Source: an uncultured virus (IMG/VR IMGVR_UViG_3300044977_000112)
Lineage: Duplodnaviria > Heunggongvirae > Uroviricota > Caudoviricetes
Reading direction: 5' to 3' (one strand)
Length of the DNA stretch: 20,000 nt
Virus record (IMG/VR): IMGVR_UViG_3300044977_000112
Shown: piece by piece, positions 2,204 to 18,113 of the stretch
Position numbering within the stretch: position 1 is the first letter of the stretch
How the letters are laid out: each line of letters opens with the position of its first letter
Notes under the pieces: generated by a model
The model's input: only the letters and a program-made list of their open reading frames with translations
Told to the model about the DNA's origin: nothing
The model's database searches: none
Made by a program: the position numbers and the translations under genes

Positions 2204-3540
2204 CAAGTCCTTGTCTCAAAACTGATGGCACTTGGCGGAAAGGATGCGTTGACCCCAATGGAGCAATACCACCAATTCCGGGGAAATCCAGACCGGCTTG
2301 TAAAAAGTTTGGCAAGCCGACGGGTAAGACAGAAACGTGCCAGACATGTCGGGGTAAAGTGAACTTGAAAATTTTCGAGTGTTCGGAGTTTGAATCGTGT
2401 ACTCCGGAAACAAAGCTTCCTGGTCATGCGTGCTGCAAAGGCTGCACGAAATATGAGCCTGTGGAGAAGCCATTTCGCGGCATGAAGTCACCGCGAGACA
2501 AGCGCAGTACCTATCATGGTGGCATTCTGCAGGTCCACCTTACAAGAGCGTGCGACCGCTCTTGTTTCGCGTGCACACAGGGTAGCAACTTCGCTGGCAA
2601 ACCCGAGTTCATGACTCCCGACCAGGCCCGAGTAGCTTTCGATTCTCTCCAAGGCTACTTCGGAGTCATCGCCCTGTTCGGCGGCAATCCCTGCATTTCC
2701 CCGCACTTTGAGGAAATCTGCAAAATCATGCGCGGTGCTGTGCCGTGGAACCGCCGAGGCCTGTGGAGTAATCATCCGTTGGGGAAAGGGAAGATATGCC
2801 GGCAGACGTTCAATCCCGCCGTCTCGAACCTCAACGTACACGAGAGCCAAGAGGCATACAACGAATTTGCGGGGGACTGGCCAGAGAGCAAGCCCTACTT
2901 GAAAGGCCTGGATTGCGATTCCGCGCACCGGCCTCCGTTCGTTGAACTGAATCAAATGATCCCCGATGAAGCTGAACGCTGGCGACTTATTCGCGATTGC
3001 AAGATTAACGCAGAATGGTCGGCGATGATCGGCATCTTCCGCGGACAACTTCGCGGCTGGTTCTGCGAGATCGCTGGTGCGCAGTCGATGCTCCACCAGT
3101 ATGATTCAGAGATTTGTGAAAAGTGTGGAGGCAAGGGAACAACGACCGCCCAATATCACCCTGAGGGAGTAGAACCCGTTGAATATCCTTGTTGGGACTG
3201 TGCTCCAACAGGAGGATTTTATGGAAAACACGGGCCATCTGAAGGTAGAGTTTGGGGCTACCCCGACACGGGTCATCGGATCGTCTCGGGCTGGTGGAAC
3301 AAACCCATCGACGCTTTCGAGGAACAAGTGACATATCACTGTCACCGCTGCGGCATTCCACTTCCTTCGGAGAGTATACTTGCCAACGGTGGCGAGGTCG
3401 AAGTAGTTACCCTGGGCTATGAGCGTATCGCCAAACCAAAGCGACTAGGGCGGCAGGTGTTGACGCTTCTGGAACCAGCGCCTCGGCTCGGTAATCCAAA
3501 TCGAGAAGTAATTCGCTATCTCGAATCGGGCAAGCCATGA
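2200..3540 (+). CDS. Radical SAM protein with N-terminal Cys-rich domain and C-terminal auxiliary Cys motifs
   Basis: CxxxCxxC (TRACDRSCFACTQ) after a beta strand, GGNP at the GGEP position, later Cys motifs (DCKIN, WFCEIAG, HCHRCG). ATGA overlap with the upstream gene. Confidence 0.9.
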   Translation: MTSPCLKTDGTWRKGCVDPNGAIPPIPGKSRPACKKFGKPTGKTETCQTCRGKVNLKIFECSEFESCTPETKLPGHACCKGCTKYEPVEKPFRGMKSPRDKRSTYHGGILQVHLTRACDRSCFACTQGSNFAGKPEFMTPDQARVAFDSLQGYFGVIALFGGNPCISPHFEEICKIMRGAVPWNRRGLWSNHPLGKGKICRQTFNPAVSNLNVHESQEAYNEFAGDWPESKPYLKGLDCDSAHRPPFVELNQMIPDEAERWRLIRDCKINAEWSAMIGIFRGQLRGWFCEIAGAQSMLHQYDSEICEKCGGKGTTTAQYHPEGVEPVEYPCWDCAPTGGFYGKHGPSEGRVWGYPDTGHRIVSGWWNKPIDAFEEQVTYHCHRCGIPLPSESILANGGEVEVVTLGYERIAKPKRLGRQVLTLLEPAPRLGNPNREVIRYLESGKP

Positions 3541-13737: not shown

Positions 13738-14031
13738 ATGGGTTCCGGCACACAAAACCCGCTGCTGTACACATTGCTGAAAATGGCCACAAGCGTGCAG
13801 TTGAAGCGGAAAGGTATTTCGCTTTCAGACTCGCAGGCCGCTCTCAGTCAGCTTGATGGCGGCATAATTGACGGTGTGGCGGCAGATGCAGGCGTGGCTT
13901 ATCCGGCCGAGAAAGGAGCAAGCGGCCAGATCATTGCAGCGTTACTTGCGTTTCTTGCTTCGCCCCAAGGACAAGCCTTAATGGCAGCTCTGATCCAGAT
14001 GCTGATTAGCCTGATCGCTGGCGGTGGCTGA
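13738..14031 (+). CDS. Hypothetical protein with hydrophobic C-terminal helices
   Basis: AAGGTG RBS; IIAALLAFLASPQGQALMAALIQMLISLI. Confidence 0.75.
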   Translation: MGSGTQNPLLYTLLKMATSVQLKRKGISLSDSQAALSQLDGGIIDGVAADAGVAYPAEKGASGQIIAALLAFLASPQGQALMAALIQMLISLIAGGG

Positions 14032-14056
14032 TCGACCTCGCTTTCGCTACAATCAT

Positions 14057-14105
14057 TCTGTTCCATTGATCTGTTCCATTGATCTGTTCCATTGATCTGT
14101 TCCAT
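14057..14105. repeat. Intergenic 13-bp tandem repeat TCTGTTCCATTGA, 3 full copies plus a 10-bp partial
   Basis: Read directly. Confidence 0.97.
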
Positions 14106-14129
14106 CTGTTTCCTCAAAAGGAATTCCAC

Positions 14130-14303
14130 ATGAATCGTTTTCTGTTCGCGTTGTTCGTCTGCTTCCTCTTCGGAGCGACCGCCGAAGCCTCCCGTTGCTC
14201 GCGAGCGGCAGCTCGTCAGGCACGGCATCAGGCTCGTGGAAGTTGCGCTCAGGCCACGTGCGCGACGGCAACGGTGATTCCGGCCATGGAAATGAGAAAG
14301 TGA
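14130..14303 (+). CDS. Small secreted basic peptide (57 aa)
   Basis: AAGGA RBS; signal peptide MNRFLFALFVCFLFGATAEA with an AxA site. Confidence 0.7.
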   Translation: MNRFLFALFVCFLFGATAEASRCSRAAARQARHQARGSCAQATCATATVIPAMEMRK

Positions 14304-14431
14304 ATCCAACTCGCCAGAGTTGGTGGGGTGTGCGACATGCACCAAACAGCCCGTGGGGAAACCTGCGGGCTGTTTTATTCTGGTTCCTGATCTTCTTTAT
14401 CAATTGCTTCATGTCTACATTCCCTGCGTAG
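14300..14431 (+). CDS. Possible small membrane peptide (43 aa)
   Basis: GTGA overlap with the upstream stop; hydrophobic VLFWFLIFFINCF. Confidence 0.4.
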   Translation: MNPTRQSWWGVRHAPNSPWGNLRAVLFWFLIFFINCFMSTFPA

Positions 14432-14465
14432 TATGAACGACTCCACAGAGTTGGCAAACGAGACT

Positions 14466-15005
14466 TTATGGTACGCTGGCGTTTCGGTGGTCGTTGCAGA
14501 TTCGCTTGGCTTCGTCGAGGTCGTGGGAGTAGCCAAGTTTGATGGCGTCATGCCATGAATGAAAGCGATTTCCGATCCGTTCAATGCGATAAGGTAAACT
14601 TGTATAGATTTTTCCGACAGCATTTTCACCTACTTCCCACTTCAGATCATTCACGCTCTCTTTGGCGGCAGAGATAACAGAATCTTCCCGATGAACCGGA
14701 CAATTTTTGCCGTCGGCATCGGCATGTTCGCAACATCCGCCAAATGCCGTCTTGACCAATCCAAGATCTTCTGCCGTCCGCTGGGCCATCGCTGCTATTT
14801 GAACGAGTTCCGCGAGCATCGCCACGCGACCTTCTTCAGTCTTCCGTTTGTCGCTTTTCACCATGTCCCAAAACTCGTCCACCTCTTCTTTGAGGACCGC
14901 ATAGCCTTCATGGAATCCATTTTGTGGCCGGGGGAACTTTGTTCTCGCGCGACCAAGTTCGCTTTCGACAAGAGCCGCAAACTTGGAATGTGTTTCAGTG
15001 GGCAT
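14466..15005 (-). CDS. MazG-like (all-alpha NTP pyrophosphohydrolase fold) phage protein with C-terminal extension
   Basis: HEGYAVLKEEVDEFWD...AELVQIAAMA gives the EExxE...E-x-x-Q pattern. Confidence 0.7.
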   Translation of the reverse strand: MPTETHSKFAALVESELGRARTKFPRPQNGFHEGYAVLKEEVDEFWDMVKSDKRKTEEGRVAMLAELVQIAAMAQRTAEDLGLVKTAFGGCCEHADADGKNCPVHREDSVISAAKESVNDLKWEVGENAVGKIYTSLPYRIERIGNRFHSWHDAIKLGYSHDLDEAKRICNDHRNASVP

Positions 15006-15008
15006 GGA

Positions 15009-15209
15009 TCACTTGCCTTTCTTTTGGGGTAGACGTTCGGCCAGTAGTTTTTCGTGTAATGCGACGATTGCCTGCCGCATTACGTCGGCATTCTTCAGTT
15101 CGTAGCCCATCTTCGCTTTCAGAATTTCCCGGATCACATCAACTCGTTGAGAAAAATCTTCGTCGGCGTTGAGGTCAATGGCAAAGAAATTTCGACTTCG
15201 TATGGCCAT
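15009..15209 (-). CDS. Small putative DNA-binding regulator (ribbon-helix-helix-like)
   Basis: AAGGAG RBS before ATG 15209; strand-helix-helix pattern (FFAIDL...NADVMRQAI); first gene after the leftward promoter. Confidence 0.6.
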   Translation of the reverse strand: MAIRSRNFFAIDLNADEDFSQRVDVIREILKAKMGYELKNADVMRQAIVALHEKLLAERLPQKKGK

Positions 15210-15229
15210 GAATGATCTCCTTCCCGAGA

Positions 15230-15258
15230 AGCATAGATTATGGCTCAAAGAAAAGCAA
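15230..15258 (-). promoter_or_regulatory. Sigma70-type promoter, leftward
   Basis: TTGCTT (15258-15253), 17 bp, TATGCT (15235-15230). Confidence 0.6.
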
Positions 15259-15265
15259 TAGGTAC

Positions 15266-15294
15266 TTGACAGGATTGTGGAATTCATCTACACT
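15266..15294 (+). promoter_or_regulatory. Sigma70-type promoter, rightward
   Basis: TTGACA (15266-15271), 17 bp, TACACT (15289-15294). Confidence 0.8.
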
Positions 15295-15347
15295 TCCTTT
15301 CAGACGACGCGGGGTCGTCGTCCTGATGGCGTTGTGTGAGGCCTCAA

Positions 15348-15545
15348 ATGCGAGAAACAGAAGCCGCTTTATTCAACCTATTTATCGCTGTGGCCGCTGA
15401 ATCTAACAGCATGGATTTAGCTGGCGTGCTTCAGAGATGCGCAATCGAGGCTTCCCGATTTGTGATGATCCGATCCCGCACGAAAGTTGAAGAACTTCTT
15501 GCGCGGGCAGAAGAATTGAGACTAGCCAGCAAAGATAATGACTGA
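15348..15545 (+). CDS. Hypothetical protein (65 aa)
   Basis: GAGG RBS before ATG 15348; first gene after the rightward promoter. Confidence 0.65.
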   Translation: MRETEAALFNLFIAVAAESNSMDLAGVLQRCAIEASRFVMIRSRTKVEELLARAEELRLASKDND

Positions 15546-15607
15546 ACAAAGCTGGGAGCCGTGGCCTGGGTCGGCATATTTCCCCTTAACCTTTCTGGAA
15601 GGCGATC

Positions 15608-16093
15608 ATGATCGACACCAAAGGTCTGAACCGCGCGGCAGTTTTGGCTGCTCTGTTCAATGCGAGCCGGCCACTTGGAATGGGCTTTATGCAGTACGAC
15701 AAAACACCCATGACTCCCGAGAGAGCGCAGGAAATCATCGACACGTTATCCGCCAACGGAGCCACCAGAATCCACTTTGATTATTTGCAAGGTCGCGTGA
15801 TGAAACTCGACTTGTCCAATCCTGACGGGTTCGAGCCGCATGGCTACAATCGCGACGTTGGTCCGGGCGCGGCGGAAAAGGTGATCGAAGAACTTCGCAG
15901 GACTTTTTCCGTCAACACTGCCGCCATTCAAGAGACGCATAAATCCGGACTCGCCGAAGCTGCCGACGAAGCGAGGAAGGGCATGCTAAAAGACCATTCT
16001 TGGGACAACTCGGCAGGTATGCCGACGCTGAACATGGGCCTTAAAGACGTGGCCCATGTTCTGGACGAAAAAGTCAACGAAGCGGTTAAGTGA
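15608..16093 (+). CDS. Conserved hypothetical viral protein
   Basis: IDTKGLNRAAVLAALFNAS..LGMGF and FDYLQGRVMKLDLS...YNRD.GPGAA resemble an uncharacterised family I recall from phages. Confidence 0.8.
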   Translation: MIDTKGLNRAAVLAALFNASRPLGMGFMQYDKTPMTPERAQEIIDTLSANGATRIHFDYLQGRVMKLDLSNPDGFEPHGYNRDVGPGAAEKVIEELRRTFSVNTAAIQETHKSGLAEAADEARKGMLKDHSWDNSAGMPTLNMGLKDVAHVLDEKVNEAVK

Positions 16094-16116
16094 ATTTCAT
16101 TGAGGACAAAAAAAAC

Positions 16117-16220
16117 GACTCGACGAGAAATTGGCCATCCCGGACTAATGACCCGGGGCAACCACGCTGAACGTCCTCATTAGTCGTTCAGACCCGGTGC
16201 AATTCCGGGACGAGTCACTA
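16117..16220 (+). ncRNA. tRNA-like RNA (atypical; nominal anticodon AAU) with complementary internal loops
   Basis: Acceptor stem GACTCG/CGAGTC followed by A-CTA; D-loop-like AATTGG; T arm CCCGG-TGCAATT-CCGGG; two internal hairpins. 104 nt, intergenic. Confidence 0.7.
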
Positions 16221-16277
16221 GGTCCGTAGCGTCTGCTGGTCACGTCCTGGGCGAACGCGGCGGCAGAGCTACGGGCC
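16221..16277 (+). other. Long GC-rich hairpin abutting the tRNA-like RNA
   Basis: GGTCCGTAGC/GCTACGGGCC (10 bp) then TCTGCTG/CGGCAGA (7 bp). Confidence 0.65.
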
Positions 16278-16328
16278 GTTTAATTGCAGTGGAGTGAATA
16301 CCCTGATCACAACTAAAGGAGTAGTTTC

Positions 16329-16556
16329 ATGCTTGTCCTCACACTCAAAACGAATCGCCGCGCGGCCCTGATCGATACGCCAGCCAACCGCTTCTTGGGC
16401 TGGGTGTCTTTGTGCGAACGAGTCACAGGCCATAATCAAGTGATGTTTGGCTTCGACTTCCCGAAGACAATCCAGATCATCCGCGAGGAGTTGTTGAGCC
16501 CGGAACAGGTGCGGGAATTCGATAAGCAATTGCAGGTGCGATTTCACCATATGTAA
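16329..16556 (+). CDS. csrA: Divergent CsrA/RsmA-like RNA-binding protein
   Basis: AAGGAG RBS; MLVLT N-terminus and QVMFGFDFPKTIQIIREELL align with the CsrA MLILTR...QVRIGxxAPKxVxVHREE pattern. Confidence 0.7.
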   Translation: MLVLTLKTNRRAALIDTPANRFLGWVSLCERVTGHNQVMFGFDFPKTIQIIREELLSPEQVREFDKQLQVRFHHM

Positions 16557-16589
16557 TTTGTACGTGGCGGACATTATGCGAGACATGAA

Positions 16590-16805
16590 ATGAAAGAAGC
16601 TTTCAAGCGGTCGATGGTGTTTCTTTATCCGCAAGGAGCGGACAACATTCATCAATGGCGCGATCTGGTTCGCACTTTCGTTATGGGATGGAACGAAGCC
16701 TTGATGAAGCGAGAGGATCGAGAAGGTTTGCTTATTGCGATGGATGTAACCAAGTCAATCACTGATAAATTTTGGTTTCCAGACAAGACTTGGAAGTGGT
16801 GGTAG
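16590..16805 (+). CDS. Hypothetical protein (71 aa)
   Basis: In series on the + strand. Confidence 0.6.
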   Translation: MKEAFKRSMVFLYPQGADNIHQWRDLVRTFVMGWNEALMKREDREGLLIAMDVTKSITDKFWFPDKTWKWW

Positions 16806-16808
16806 CGT

Positions 16809-17027
16809 ATGACCATATACGTTTTCAAGTGTTGCGACTGCGGAACAATGGGGACGACTATCGATCCGAATGATGATCCAATTTGCGGACAGTGCGAAAA
16901 TATAAGGCGAAAATGGTGGGCAGTGTACAACGCGCAATCGCCTGCTATTCGCGAAGCAATTGACCAAATTGAGTTTTCACCATTCACAGCCCGATCCAGC
17001 GGTTATTGCTTCAAAGTAAACGAGTAG
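16809..17027 (+). CDS. Hypothetical zinc-ribbon protein
   Basis: YVFKCCDCG...CGQC. Confidence 0.65.
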   Translation: MTIYVFKCCDCGTMGTTIDPNDDPICGQCENIRRKWWAVYNAQSPAIREAIDQIEFSPFTARSSGYCFKVNE

Positions 17028-17063
17028 TGTTTTCCTGTATGATCAGCAGTTGGGGGACGCTAG

Positions 17064-17372
17064 ATGAAAAATAAGCGATGGAATTGGCAAAACTGGTTGG
17101 CAATTGTAAGGGATCGAGTACCAACCGCGACAACGGTTGCGGAGGCCATTTATGCTCTGTTGCGGGACAAGCCTGCCAAAAAGCGTGGTCTGTACGTCCA
17201 CGAACTGGGGATTGCTTGGGGGACCGAGCAATCCGCGACAAATGAGGAGTTCCACAAACTGTCCCGAAGTGGTCTACTCTCTCGCTGTCCAGGTATGCCC
17301 TATTACGCGCCGACGATGAAGATGGACCCACTGAACGCTGATTTTCCTAAAGTATCCTGTACAAAATTATAA
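17064..17372 (+). CDS. Hypothetical protein, possibly winged-helix
   Basis: GGGGGA RBS; AIYALLR...LYVHELG...FHKLSRSGLL is weakly wHTH-like. Confidence 0.6.
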   Translation: MKNKRWNWQNWLAIVRDRVPTATTVAEAIYALLRDKPAKKRGLYVHELGIAWGTEQSATNEEFHKLSRSGLLSRCPGMPYYAPTMKMDPLNADFPKVSCTKL

Positions 17373-17403
17373 ACGTAATTTGTACCGGGAGGAAGAATTA
17401 TCC

Positions 17404-17670
17404 ATGTTCGACAAACACCTGACGCCCAATTACGGCAAATTCACACTCGCTCGTCCGATGCTCAAAAACGTCCCTGGCGGCAAGCCGGGCTGGACGCTGG
17501 TCTCGTGCCCGTACTGCGGTTGCGACTGCTGGAAGCAGGTCATTGAGCCGGACCCGCTCCCCGCCAACTGCACCGCGGCGTGTACCGAGTGTGCGTTGAA
17601 GCGGAGTCACCACCAGCAAGAAATGGATGCCGCGCGATACGCAAAGGAATCCGCGTCCGGCTGTGCCTAA
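17404..17670 (+). CDS. Zinc-finger hypothetical protein
   Basis: GGAGG RBS before ATG 17404; CPYCGCDCW...ACTECAL. Confidence 0.75.
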   Translation: MFDKHLTPNYGKFTLARPMLKNVPGGKPGWTLVSCPYCGCDCWKQVIEPDPLPANCTAACTECALKRSHHQQEMDAARYAKESASGCA

Positions 17671-17729
17671 TTGATGGGCTCACTCTATCGCTGTCTAGGT
17701 ATGCCTTATTAGCTGACCTTATGGGAGCC

Positions 17730-18113
17730 ATGAAAATGATTGATGTGTCAAAGGAAACGTGGCCAAGTGATTGCCCACGGATCGTCTGCTTGTGCGGCTC
17801 GACTCGCTTCTATTGGGCATTCCAGGAGGCTAATTTCCGCGAGACGATGGCAGGCCGGATCGTGCTGTCTGTCGGGTTCTATCCTCATGCGACAGCCGAA
17901 GTTCATGGCGAACACATTGGGATTACCCAAGCTGAGAAAGAAGCCCTTGACCGTCTTCACTTTCGCAAGATCGATCTGGCCCATGAAATTCTTGTGTTGA
18001 ACGTGGATGGATATGTGGGGAGTTCGACGCGCAATGAAATCCTGTACGCAAGATCGAAGGGCCGTCCTGTTCGATGGCTACATGACAACAAAATACCAGA
18101 CGATTTGCAGTAG
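17730..18113 (+). CDS. Nucleoside deoxyribosyltransferase-like fold protein (DUF4406-type)
   Basis: IVCLCGSTRF...KIDLAHEILVLNVDGYVGSSTRNEILYARSKGRPV; GGAG before ATG 17730 (or 17736). Confidence 0.75.
   Translation: MKMIDVSKETWPSDCPRIVCLCGSTRFYWAFQEANFRETMAGRIVLSVGFYPHATAEVHGEHIGITQAEKEALDRLHFRKIDLAHEILVLNVDGYVGSSTRNEILYARSKGRPVRWLHDNKIPDDLQ

Follow-up and report, generated by a model that had tools for sequence, protein, structure and literature searches.

Location and parts of the element

The window analyzed here, a 20,000-nucleotide stretch that forms part of a 73.9-kb contig, belongs to an uncultured soil phage. The element under study lies in an accessory-gene region, within a 234-nt non-coding gap (16095-16328) flanked on both sides by + strand genes. 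Barring a pair of antisense ORFs overlapping the flanking genes, the longest ORF in this gap is at most 32 aa. The features of the locus are as follows:

15608..16093, + strand: upstream gene, 161 aa, conserved phage family without assigned function (ORF, homologues)
16117..16123, + strand: 5' side of the acceptor-like closing stem, GACUCG followed by A16123; pairs with 16211-16
16124..16137, + strand: linker CGAGAAAUUGGCCA at the place of the D arm, without a D stem (MFE structure)
16138..16158, + strand: arm 1 (anticodon-arm position), 6-bp stem UCCCGG/CCGGGG, 9-nt loop ACUAAUGAC (read from sequence, MFE)
16143..16151, + strand: 5' half of the loop-loop complementarity, G-ACUAAUGA; exact reverse complement of 16177-85
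16159..16166, + strand: 8-nt linker CAACCACG from arm 1 to arm 2 (read from sequence)
16167..16191, + strand: arm 2 (variable-arm position), 7-bp stem CUGAACG/CGUUCAG, 11-nt loop UCCUCAUUAGU (read from sequence, MFE)
16177..16185, + strand: 3' half of the loop-loop complementarity, UCAUUAGU-C; exact reverse complement of 16143-51
16193..16209, + strand: T-arm-like hairpin CCCGG/UGCAAUU/CCGGG (read from sequence, MFE)
16210..16220, + strand: A plus 3' strand of the closing stem, CGAGUC, discriminator-position A16217, then CUA; no encoded CCA
16221..16286, + strand: long GC-rich hairpin (arms 16221-30/16268-77 plus an inner stem), then GUUUAAUU (fold, inverted repeat)
16329..16556, + strand: downstream gene, 75 aa, weakly CsrA-like (PF02599, 23.2 bits, under the cut-off of 27)

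The original prediction described a tRNA-shaped RNA with two hairpins whose loops are complementary to one another, and both the helices and the complementarity could be read directly from the sequence at the positions it gave. The closing stem comprises 6 bp (GACTCG 16117-22/CGAGTC 16211-16) followed by a mismatched seventh position (A16123/A16210), and its pair 16118-16215 has a probability of 0.998. Hairpin 1 (TCCCGG 16138-43/CCGGGG 16153-58, loop ACTAATGAC) has a folding energy of -8.9 kcal/mol on its own, and its inner 7 nt, CUAAUGA, resemble an anticodon loop (Y-U-NNN-R-A). Hairpin 2 (CTGAACG 16167-73/CGTTCAG 16185-91, loop TCCTCATTAGT) has a pair probability of 0.999 and an inner loop of CUCAUUA once C16175-G16183 pairs. 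Importantly, ACTAATGA (16144-51) and TCATTAGT (16177-84) are perfect reverse complements, and a repeat search extended these 8 nt to 9 bp by adding G16143-C16185. The T-arm-like hairpin (CCCGG 16193-97, loop TGCAATT, CCGGG 16205-09) carries a loop that differs by one base, a G at position 55, from UUCAAUU, which is a common T loop. The pattern CCCGG-N(5-12)-CCGGG occurs twice in the 20-kb window, both times within the element, which is rich in CCCGG/CCGGG and GAC(U/C)CG repeats, so that several alternative pairings are possible. The 3' tail is ACTA and no CCA is encoded, in agreement with the earlier description of its end as ACUA rather than NCCA.

Neighboring genes and flanking signals

The stop codon of the 161-aa gene lies 23 nt before the element. 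An AF2 model of the 161-aa protein reached a pLDDT of 96.5; the protein matched no Pfam or PHROG family and had no usable match in the ESM Atlas. Its model displayed no clear PDB fold (Foldseek against PDB, E of at least 0.76; best VIA-align Z 3.8), and a comparison with BFVD returned uncharacterized phage proteins only. Relatives of this gene are often found near tRNA genes in other phages, and most of its homologues are followed by plain terminators. On the other side of the gap, the 75-aa ORF is preceded by the Shine-Dalgarno sequence AAAGGAG at 16315-21; its product has no PDB sequence match, and the closest known relative is a protein 93% identical to it, encoded on a 798-bp contig.

As judged from its predicted fold, the hairpin at 16221-77 may be either terminator-like or a protector of the 3' end. 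A consensus terminator scan of the + strand (15400-16700) called no terminator, the 16221-77 hairpin included, and no sigma-70-like promoter was seen between the two flanking genes. A CsrA-binding RNA, whether of the CsrB/RsmZ type or an operator, would present several GGA motifs in hairpin loops. The gap does not resemble one: GGA is not enriched in it (5 per 234 nt vs ~3.7 expected), and a single motif, 16142-44, reaches a loop, doing so at the 5' edge. Among the 45 ORF translations of the window, no integrase, replication initiator or repressor was recognized.

The element cannot be a decoding tRNA

ARAGORN found 0 tRNA genes in the 20-kb window, and with introns disallowed it likewise returned 0 at thresholds of 100, 95, 90 and 80%. 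Rfam gave no match at the gathering score, and none from the tRNA clan at E<=10 across 15900-16500; nor did the element match, at gathering score, the models of tmRNA, YrlA and other curated tRNA-like RNAs in Rfam 15. At E<=10, the Rfam matches were limited to a group II intron fragment at 13.8 bits and leuA-Halobacteria at 13 bits, each well short of its cut-off. The expectation that neither ARAGORN nor Rfam would call a tRNA was thus borne out.

Allowing introns altered the ARAGORN result at a threshold of 80%, where 16117-16218 was called as a tRNA-Arg(CCU) with a 24-nt insert and the anticodon stem ACTAA/TTAGT. We discarded this setting as evidence because it made an obviously false extra call in the same 401 bases. 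With introns at 90%, ARAGORN produced 147 intron-bearing calls over 160 loci, and at relaxed thresholds it made ~1 spurious call per 5 kb. An archaeal-type bulge-helix-bulge intron was likewise rejected, as it would leave a 9-bp 'anticodon stem' and only a single bulge is present.

Comparison with the canonical class II tRNA (RF00005) revealed both likenesses and differences. The element resembles it in the acceptor-like stem (6 bp and a mismatch at 7:66), in a 5-bp/7-nt T-arm-like hairpin immediately 5' of the acceptor 3' strand, in an extra arm at the place of the long variable arm, and in the anticodon-like loop motif C-U-AAU-G-A. The T arm retains U54, C56, A57 and A58. In contrast, position 55 is G instead of U, position 8 is C16124 instead of U, CCA is lacking, and the 3-4-bp D stem is absent from the MFE structure. 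The AAUUGG that had been proposed as D-loop-like is indeed there, but no D stem surrounds it; instead, UGG 16132-34 pairs with CCA 16162-64 in the MFE structure and thereby extends arm 1. The sole drawing with a D stem was that of ARAGORN with introns at the 80% threshold, in which 3/4 positions paired. Nor is there an anticodon stem of 5 bp bearing a free loop of 7 nt. In its place stand a 6-bp stem and a 9-nt loop, which shrinks to 7 nt only by counting an A/C mismatch as its closing pair, and 8 of these 9 nt are complementary to the neighboring loop. The tRNA likeness extends no further than the acceptor/T-arm half: a D stem is missing, the T loop has G55, and Rfam gives no tRNA match. The RNA-level shape described originally is evident in the sequence, is the fold preferred thermodynamically, and cannot be that of a decoding tRNA.

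Preferred fold and rarity of the loop-loop match

RNAfold returned the four-way junction as both the MFE and the centroid structure (-38.4 kcal/mol, z -3.11), with the MFE structure accounting for 16% of the ensemble, and 0/200 shuffles were as stable as the element. A nested fold, in which the two complementary segments form one helix, reached -31.8 kcal/mol, or 6.6 kcal/mol worse; the two segments are therefore not predicted simply to make up a single nested helix. The loop-loop duplex has an energy of -7.7 kcal/mol. The minus strand folded to -38.9 kcal/mol (z -2.0).

A loop-loop match of at least 6 nt arose in 0/4000 dinucleotide shuffles of the element. Among 28,493 natural 104-nt segments from related phages, none had a match of 8 nt; the longest was 7 nt (1 segment), and 5 had 6 nt. 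Acceptor-plus-T-arm frames as such are generic, occurring in 117/3024 control segments of 310 nt (3.9%), and they were not enriched behind the neighbor gene (5/124, or 4.0%). The element was alone among 125 tRNA-like frames (756 kb, window plus loci) in having a loop match longer than 5 nt. This design scan thus found no second case of a frame plus kissing loops, under an acceptor criterion that would miss T4 RNA C itself (5/7 pairs). Perfect inverted repeats are not rare here: 601 bases hold 3, including another of 9 bp and one of 11 bp, and two of them fall in coding sequence. What is unusual is not the 9-bp repeat itself but the placement of both its arms in hairpin loops.

Search for relatives

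Neither blastn of the gap nor blastn of 14000-18000 found a relative among the INPHARED phages, and searches of IMG/VR for loci with the two flanking proteins and a 614-aa ORF yielded 0, 2 spurious and 0 loci, respectively. The gap also lacked a homologue by blastn and nhmmer in 8, and later 160, loci containing the neighbor gene. R1, a single-sequence covariance model of the element, recovered only the element itself from the window and 88/160 loci; against 55 whole viral records (5, then 50) its best E values per genome were 0.28 and 0.78. The pattern ACTAATGA..TCATTAGT matched at least 119 stretches in IMG/VR, AT-rich chance matches throughout, while the loop pattern combined with the T loop had 0 matches in IMG/VR and 2 chance matches in GTDB genomes. 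A papain-like protease query led to 6 distant phage loci without synteny, and the 161-aa protein was in none of these records. In a soil metagenome DNA run, contigs reached 16407-16900 only, where they were identical to the window. The lack of a homologue in any search counts against the reading of the element as a working RNA.

Parallels with T4 RNA C and other tRNA-like RNAs

Kissing complexes between 7-nt loops are familiar from ColE1 RNA I/RNA II and from tRNA dimers joined anticodon to anticodon. As in the element, these involve two 7-nt anticodon-like loops that pair over 6-7 bp and stack between their stems. They are formed by two molecules, whereas both loops of the element lie on one RNA, 8 nt apart, so that two copies could also dimerize by way of these loops.

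A closer parallel is the RNA C of phage T4 (rnaC, species 1 RNA; NC_000866, 70908-71046; 139 nt), which has been known since the 1970s and sequenced for decades. It is a stable small RNA from the tRNA region of T4, and reviews and omics papers still give its role as unknown (PMC3014915, PMC9697503). Its hexaloops, UUGACG and CGUCAA, are complementary over 6 nt. RNA C has 748 matching phage records, and across 5 diverged rnaC homologues both partners differ in 9 stem pairs, while 6/6 loop-loop pairs are invariant. The present analysis thus found the apical loops of RNA C to be complementary and invariant while the stems covary; we found no description of this loop complementarity among the full-text papers listed, the older subscription literature lying outside that search.

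We compared the layout of the element with T4 rnaC and 4 of its homologues. The order of parts is shared: a mismatched acceptor-like stem, no D arm, a long arm 1, and arm 2 at the variable position, followed in both by a 5-bp/7-nt T arm that abuts the 3' acceptor strand. Arms 1 and 2 have complementary apical loops in each case, of 6 nt in T4 RNA C and 8-9 nt in the element, and both RNAs are missed by the Rfam tRNA model at threshold and by all Rfam families. The two differ in the T loop (canonical UUCGAAU in T4 RNA C vs UGCAAUU in the element), in the length of arm 1, which is much longer in T4 RNA C, and in setting: T4 RNA C sits within a tRNA cluster, whereas the window around the element contains 0 tRNA genes. 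Moreover, T4 RNA C has 5 aligned homologues with stem covariation, while the element stands alone. A model of RNA C built from 5 rnaC homologues (R2) and run with filters off gave as its best match in the 2.5 kb around the site a weak, local one of 9.4 bits to 16167-16209 (arm 2 plus T arm), covering model positions 92-135 of 149 at a rough E of 0.075. Homology between the two is not demonstrable from this local match, and their parallel is a likeness of design. The suggestion that the element might represent a new ncRNA class was overstated, given that T4 RNA C shares its layout, complementary apical loops included.

One further locus (L169, 3021-3142), from a metagenome, contains a genuine tRNA body (43.3 bits with Rfam) in which a 60-nt hairpin takes the place of the anticodon loop, and which lies 65 nt behind a homologue of the 161-aa gene. 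Like the element, it stands just behind this gene, has a deviant T loop and could not decode. Unlike the element, it keeps a full D arm and scores on the tRNA model, and its insert prolongs the anticodon arm as a single long hairpin, which lacks both a second arm and a loop-loop match. There is no sequence similarity between the two.

Alternative explanations

We weighed four alternatives to a structured, non-decoding RNA. The gap may be an ordinary spacer with a terminator-like hairpin, in which the junction and the loop match are coincidental, aided by GC-rich palindromes (CCCGGG) and picked post hoc from a very large scan. No search found a homologue, tRNA-like frames are generic at 3.9% of 310-nt control segments, perfect inverted repeats of 9-11 bp number three in 601 bases (two of them coding), the minus strand folds equally well, and relaxed, intron-allowing ARAGORN makes a spurious call about every 5 kb; a scan of ~250,000 windows would, in addition, be expected to throw up a few chance cases of such quality. 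What renders chance doubtful, though still a serious contender, is the rarity of the joint event (8 nt in 0/4000 shuffles, 0/28,493 natural segments and 1/125 frames), together with the z of -3.1 and a well-defined ensemble (MFE 16%), the exact placement of the element on the transcribed strand of a non-coding gap, and a design that repeats that of a proven stable RNA, T4 RNA C. The element may also be a decayed phage tRNA gene whose D arm is gone and whose anticodon region was changed by an insertion or rearrangement, with ACUAA/UUAGU as the old anticodon stem and no present function. The tRNA-Arg(CCU) call of ARAGORN (introns, 80%) uses just this ACTAA/TTAGT stem, the T loop is one base off a common canonical sequence, relatives of the neighbor gene occur in tRNA regions, the L169 tRNA body bears its 60-nt insert at the same relative place, and a direct repeat, GACCCGG(G/T)GCAA at 16150 and 16191, hints at internal duplication. 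That ARAGORN setting, however, also makes a false call in the same 401 bases and even the stricter 90% gave 147 calls, the repeat is at chance level by estimate (~0.3 expected), and the nested fold is 6.6 kcal/mol worse. Decay would also leave unexplained two strong hairpins that put the 'old stem' exactly in their loops, and we consider it quite unlikely.

The element might instead act in cis as part of an mRNA rather than as a free RNA, being either a 3'-end stabilizer or processing site of the 161-aa mRNA or a leader of the CsrA-like gene. Its start 23 nt past a stop codon with a strong hairpin behind it, the absence of a sigma-70-like promoter between the genes and the weak CsrA match of the downstream ORF are compatible with such a role, as is a possible alternative pairing of UGAGGA 16101-06 with the complementary UCCUCA 16174-79 of the arm 2 loop. 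With GGA not enriched and a single one at a loop, however, the gap is unlike a CsrA sponge or operator; the Shine-Dalgarno sequence lies ~100 nt downstream and is unsequestered in the MFE structure, and plain terminators stand behind most homologues of the upstream gene, all of which make a cis-acting element improbable. Lastly, nested inverted repeats could serve at the DNA level as protein-binding sites or a cruciform, as in an origin, recombination site or operator. All of the helices are also DNA palindromes, the 9-bp repeat arms are 25 bp apart, and the two strands fold about equally. The G-U pairs U16138-G16158 and, in the downstream hairpin, U16223-G16275 nevertheless work only in + strand RNA, the motif has no further copy in the window, and the 45 ORF translations include no recognizable integrase, replication initiator or repressor; a DNA site thus seems very improbable.

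A candidate self-locked tRNA mimic

Our preferred reading, which we hold tentatively and at somewhat less than an even chance, is that the gap encodes a plausible non-decoding, tRNA-framed RNA of ~100 nt that is built like T4 RNA C. It draws on how stable the predicted junction is, on how seldom such a loop match arises, on the gap being non-coding, and on the T4 RNA C parallel together with the weak R2 match; relatives of the neighbor gene close to tRNA genes, and the L169 tRNA body, also speak for it. In such an RNA, the acceptor-like stem of 6-7 bp would stack on the T-arm-like hairpin, with the D arm missing, and the arm loops CUAAUGA and CUCAUUA would pair over 6-9 bp, locking the molecule. 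We infer that this kiss would form within one molecule and that the RNA may have a target. By A-form geometry, an intramolecular kiss would require the linker CAACCACG to bridge a ~21-bp stack, and its 8 nt would barely suffice for 8 bp.

The RNA would probably be co-transcribed with the upstream 161-aa gene, because the flanking genes share the + strand, with no promoter-like site in between. RNase P may then recognize the acceptor/T-arm minihelix and cut before G16117, and the same cut would determine where the upstream mRNA ends, immediately after an A8 run. Trimming back from the terminator-like hairpin would presumably complete the 3' side. Once freed, the self-locked RNA would present the acceptor/elbow surface of a tRNA with both loops hidden, and would therefore be unusable in translation. 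Most likely, its target would be a host factor binding to the bodies of tRNAs, for which it would be a decoy or sponge. The roles put forward originally, a nuclease or sensor decoy or a signal for RNase P/Z, are conceivable.

Among the genes that phages carry are those for tRNAs, and little is known of what their odd tRNA look-alikes do. By itself, this orphan copy is only a candidate; it does show an unrelated soil-phage gap repeating the layout of RNA C with a longer loop match. A bolder reading, which we regard as unlikely at present, is that the two exemplify a T4 RNA C type of self-locked phage tRNA mimic, a class that recurs and may have arisen by convergence. Members of such a class would keep the acceptor/T-arm half and tie their other arms together by complementary anticodon-like loops, and they would occupy or mislead a tRNA-handling host factor such as a defense nuclease, a processing enzyme or a sensor. 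If true, this would give T4 RNA C a testable function after some fifty years, as well as a search rule. Confirmation of further cases would make 'tRNA frame plus kissing arms' a recognizable class of viral RNA with a clear experimental handle.

Structure of the element

Reading the sequence directly, we found every feature of the original prediction at its coordinates, including the 3' tail, ACUA.

Parts of the element, from pairing in the sequence
16117-22/16211-16, +, closing stem, GACUCG/CGAGUC
16138-43/16153-58, +, arm 1, UCCCGG/CCGGGG, with 9-nt loop ACUAAUGAC
16167-73/16185-91, +, arm 2, CUGAACG/CGUUCAG, with 11-nt loop UCCUCAUUAGU
16193-16209, +, T-arm-like hairpin, CCCGG/UGCAAUU/CCGGG

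The closing stem has a mismatch at its seventh position (A16123/A16210), and a 1-base gap separates its 3' strand from the T-arm-like hairpin. As predicted, ACUAAUGA (16144-51) and UCAUUAGU (16177-84) are exact reverse complements, and a repeat search extended this complementarity to 9 bp with G16143-C16185. Counting the A16144/C16152 mismatch and the C16175-G16183 pair as stem ends leaves two 7-nt anticodon-like loops, CUAAUGA and CUCAUUA. The AAUUGG described as D-loop-like is present, but a D stem around it is absent; its UGG instead pairs with CCA 16162-64 in the minimum-energy fold, lengthening arm 1.

The element is internally repetitive, making further alternative pairings possible. CCCGG/CCGGG occurs four times, both examples of the hairpin motif CCCGG-N(5-12)-CCGGG in the whole window lie within the element, and GACUCG and GACCCG also recur there. 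A direct repeat, GACCCGG(G/T)GCAA (16150-16161, GACCCGGGGCAA; 16191-16202, GACCCGGTGCAA; 11/12 identical), joins the 3' side of arm 1 to the 5' side of the T arm, and may be the mark of an internal duplication or else chance (~0.3 expected, by our estimate). UCCUCA (16174-79) in the arm 2 loop has a complement in UGAGGA (16101-06), right behind the stop codon of the upstream gene.

The four-way junction was both the minimum-energy and the centroid structure (RNAfold; -38.4 kcal/mol, 16% of the ensemble), with a z-score of -3.11 and none of 200 shuffles equally stable. It had been proposed that the prediction would fall if the two complementary segments simply formed one nested helix. When forced, that helix (16144-51/16177-84) gave -31.8 kcal/mol, 6.6 worse, and the loop-loop duplex was computed to contribute ~-7.7 kcal/mol on top of the hairpin form, which argues against the nested fold. 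The minus strand was similar in energy (-38.9 kcal/mol, z -2.0, diffuse ensemble), so energy alone does not fix the strand; the plus strand is favored because both flanking genes lie on it and because the G-U pairs U16138-G16158 and U16223-G16275 (the latter in the downstream hairpin) exist on it exclusively. The 8-nt linker 16159-66 would have to span a stacked rod of arm 1, loop-loop helix and arm 2 of ~21 bp, a distance that it could only just bridge, given a bend in the complex. A dimer formed through the same two loops is an alternative to intramolecular pairing.

Detection by tRNA and RNA family models

As anticipated, ARAGORN called no tRNA or tmRNA in the 20-kb window and Rfam 15 gave no match at gathering score. 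Without introns, ARAGORN made 0 calls in 16000-16400 at thresholds of 95, 90 and 80%, and Rfam at E<=10 returned two noise matches only, none of the tRNA clan. With introns allowed at 80%, ARAGORN reported 16117-16218 as 'tRNA-Arg(CCU) with a 24-nt intron', with ACUAA/UUAGU as the anticodon stem. Since such lax settings also produced a clearly false opposite-strand call within the same 401 bases and, at 90%, 147 intron-bearing calls across 160 phage loci, we gave this call no weight as a detection and kept it solely as a nested-helix alternative.

Rarity of the loop-loop match

A perfect 9-bp inverted repeat is not in itself rare, as the same 601 bases carry one more of 9 bp and one of 11 bp, within coding sequence. 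The rare feature is the placement of both repeat arms in the loops of two strong adjacent hairpins. When 4000 dinucleotide-shuffled versions of the element were refolded, no loop-loop match exceeded 5 nt, a length reached in 1 shuffle. In natural DNA (28,493 windows of 104 nt, both strands of loci L122-L287 and the window), the maximum was 7 nt, reached once, and 5 windows had 6 nt. Likewise, of 125 tRNA-like frames (an acceptor-like stem plus T-arm-like hairpin) in 756 kb, real tRNAs included, the element alone exceeded 5 nt.

Genomic setting

The window, part of a 73,856-bp contig, is a phage-like accessory region; alongside numerous small orphan genes it encodes several DNA methyltransferases, a papain-like protease and a protein related to crAss001_48. 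A gap of 234 nt houses the element, and its ORFs are <=32 aa, except for two antisense ORFs overlapping the flanking genes.

Features flanking the element
15608-16093, +, 161-aa gene of a widespread phage family with no Pfam or PHROG name
16221-77, +, GC-rich long hairpin directly 3' of the element, then GUUUAAUU
16329-16556, +, 75-aa ORF weakly matching the CsrA family over residues 35-57 (PF02599, 23.2 bits, under the cut-off of 27)

The element starts 23 nt past the stop codon of the 161-aa gene, right behind an A8 run (16108-15) that directly precedes its predicted 5' end. The GC-rich hairpin is followed by a Shine-Dalgarno site and then the start codon of the 75-aa ORF; no sigma-70-like promoter was seen between the flanking genes. 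By eye, the 75-aa product begins like CsrA (MLVLTLK) and contains an ...IIREEL motif; it had no sequence match in PDB, and its single known homologue (P0045), near-identical (93%), is on a 798-bp contig. The 161-aa family (44 proteins, alignment A1) yielded a very confident AlphaFold model (pLDDT 96.5, pTM 0.89) with no Foldseek match in PDB (E>=0.76) and a best VIA-align Z of 3.8. Among the 50 weak structural matches listed, ~11 were to RNA-binding domains of the KH type (Rrp4, Rrp40, Krr1, Dim2/Pno1), which is a hint only.

Relatives of the element and homologous loci

The element is an orphan within the searched data, as all searches for relatives were negative. No DNA similarity was found among INPHARED phages, and IMG/VR, queried with three proteins of the source phage, yielded no close relative of it. 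In 160 loci encoding homologues of the 161-aa protein (80 metagenome, 80 viral; 34-55% identity), the element was not found by blastn or nhmmer. R1, a covariance model built from the element alone and thus limited in reach, found no copy in 88 of these 160 loci or in 55 whole viral records. A pattern on both loops and the T loop had 0 matches in IMG/VR and two AT-rich chance matches in GTDB genomes. The sole sequencing run found was of DNA and covered 16407-16900 only.

Plain terminators come after most homologues of the 161-aa gene, tRNA genes lie within ~2 kb in ~13 of the loci, and frames were not enriched behind the gene (5/124 vs 117/3024 controls). The cases at L169, L208 and L239 are anecdotes.

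tRNA-like bodies behind homologues of the 161-aa gene
L169, 3021-3142, +, tRNA body 65 nt behind the gene (Rfam tRNA, 43.3 bits)
L208, 2975-3050, +, cloverleaf immediately 3' of the gene; 'anticodon' loop of 13 nt, deviant T loop
L208, 3236-3300, +, phage-borne tmRNA, 5' part (Rfam, 26 bits), 270 nt downstream, truncated at the edge of the searched stretch
L239, 2895-3043, +, 149-nt frame with a 7-bp perfect acceptor-like stem (CAAGGGG/CCCCUUG) and canonical T arm CUGGUUCGACUCCAG

The L169 body has full acceptor, D and T arms, with a 60-nt insert in place of the 7-nt anticodon loop drawing that arm out into a long hairpin, and was not called by ARAGORN at default settings. Neither ARAGORN nor Rfam called the L208 cloverleaf. 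The L239 frame contains three inner hairpins (-69.7 kcal/mol) and was called by ARAGORN solely at a lowered threshold, solely as 'tRNA-Val with a 65-nt intron'.

Two further loci carry unusual tRNAs. At L171 (~3100-3300, +), a tRNA-Val (3140-3216) lies within a long perfect inverted repeat, CAUGCCCCCACACCUUUGG ... CCAAAGGUGUGGGGGUG, flanked by apparent halves of a second tRNA, GGGCGAUUAGCUCAG ... UAGUUAGAGCGC, so that the first seems to sit inside the D loop of the second. At L138 (3470-3751, -), ARAGORN (default threshold, introns allowed) called a tRNA-Phe(GAA) interrupted by a 207-nt intron beside three ordinary tRNAs; this is possibly a phage tRNA carrying a group I intron.

Comparison with phage T4 RNA C

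No Rfam family covers T4 RNA C (rnaC; NC_000866 70908-71046, L288), and two papers call its role unknown (PMC3014915, PMC9697503). Its fold comprises an acceptor-like stem, a canonical T arm and, between them, a long arm 1 and a 10-bp arm 2, whose apical loops, UUGACG and CGUCAA, are complementary over 6 nt. We aligned it with its relatives (L289-L292; five homologues in all, down to ~60-80% identity). Both-sided changes occurred in 9 stem pairs, while 6/6 loop-loop pairs were invariant in 5/5 homologues, as were two U/U mismatches of the acceptor-like stem. The alignment indicates that the loops are under strong constraint, which does not itself prove that they pair. The element resembles T4 RNA C in the order of its parts and in the kind of loop match. 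A model of the five aligned rnaC sequences matched it only locally (arm 2 and T arm, 9.4 bits), so we regard the two as sharing a design, relatedness not being shown.

Interpretation

We tentatively favor the view that the element is a non-decoding tRNA-framed RNA, on the basis of its fold preference, the rarity of its loop match, its non-coding setting and the T4 parallel. It would be transcribed together with the upstream gene, and RNase P, acting through the acceptor/T-arm half, would release it at 16116/16117; the loop-loop helix, formed intramolecularly, would lock it, and it might act as a tRNA-shaped decoy for a presumed target.

A structure arisen by chance is the most serious rival, if a rather unlikely one. 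Generic frames are common (3.9% of 310-nt control segments), and so much sequence was scanned that a handful of cases this good are expected overall; statistics alone do not settle the matter, rare as the loop match is in shuffles and natural windows. We consider it improbable that the element is a decayed tRNA relic, slightly more so that it is a purely cis-acting mRNA element, and very improbable that it is a DNA site.

The present copy is a candidate; the part worth following is the recurring design, together with its implication for T4 RNA C.
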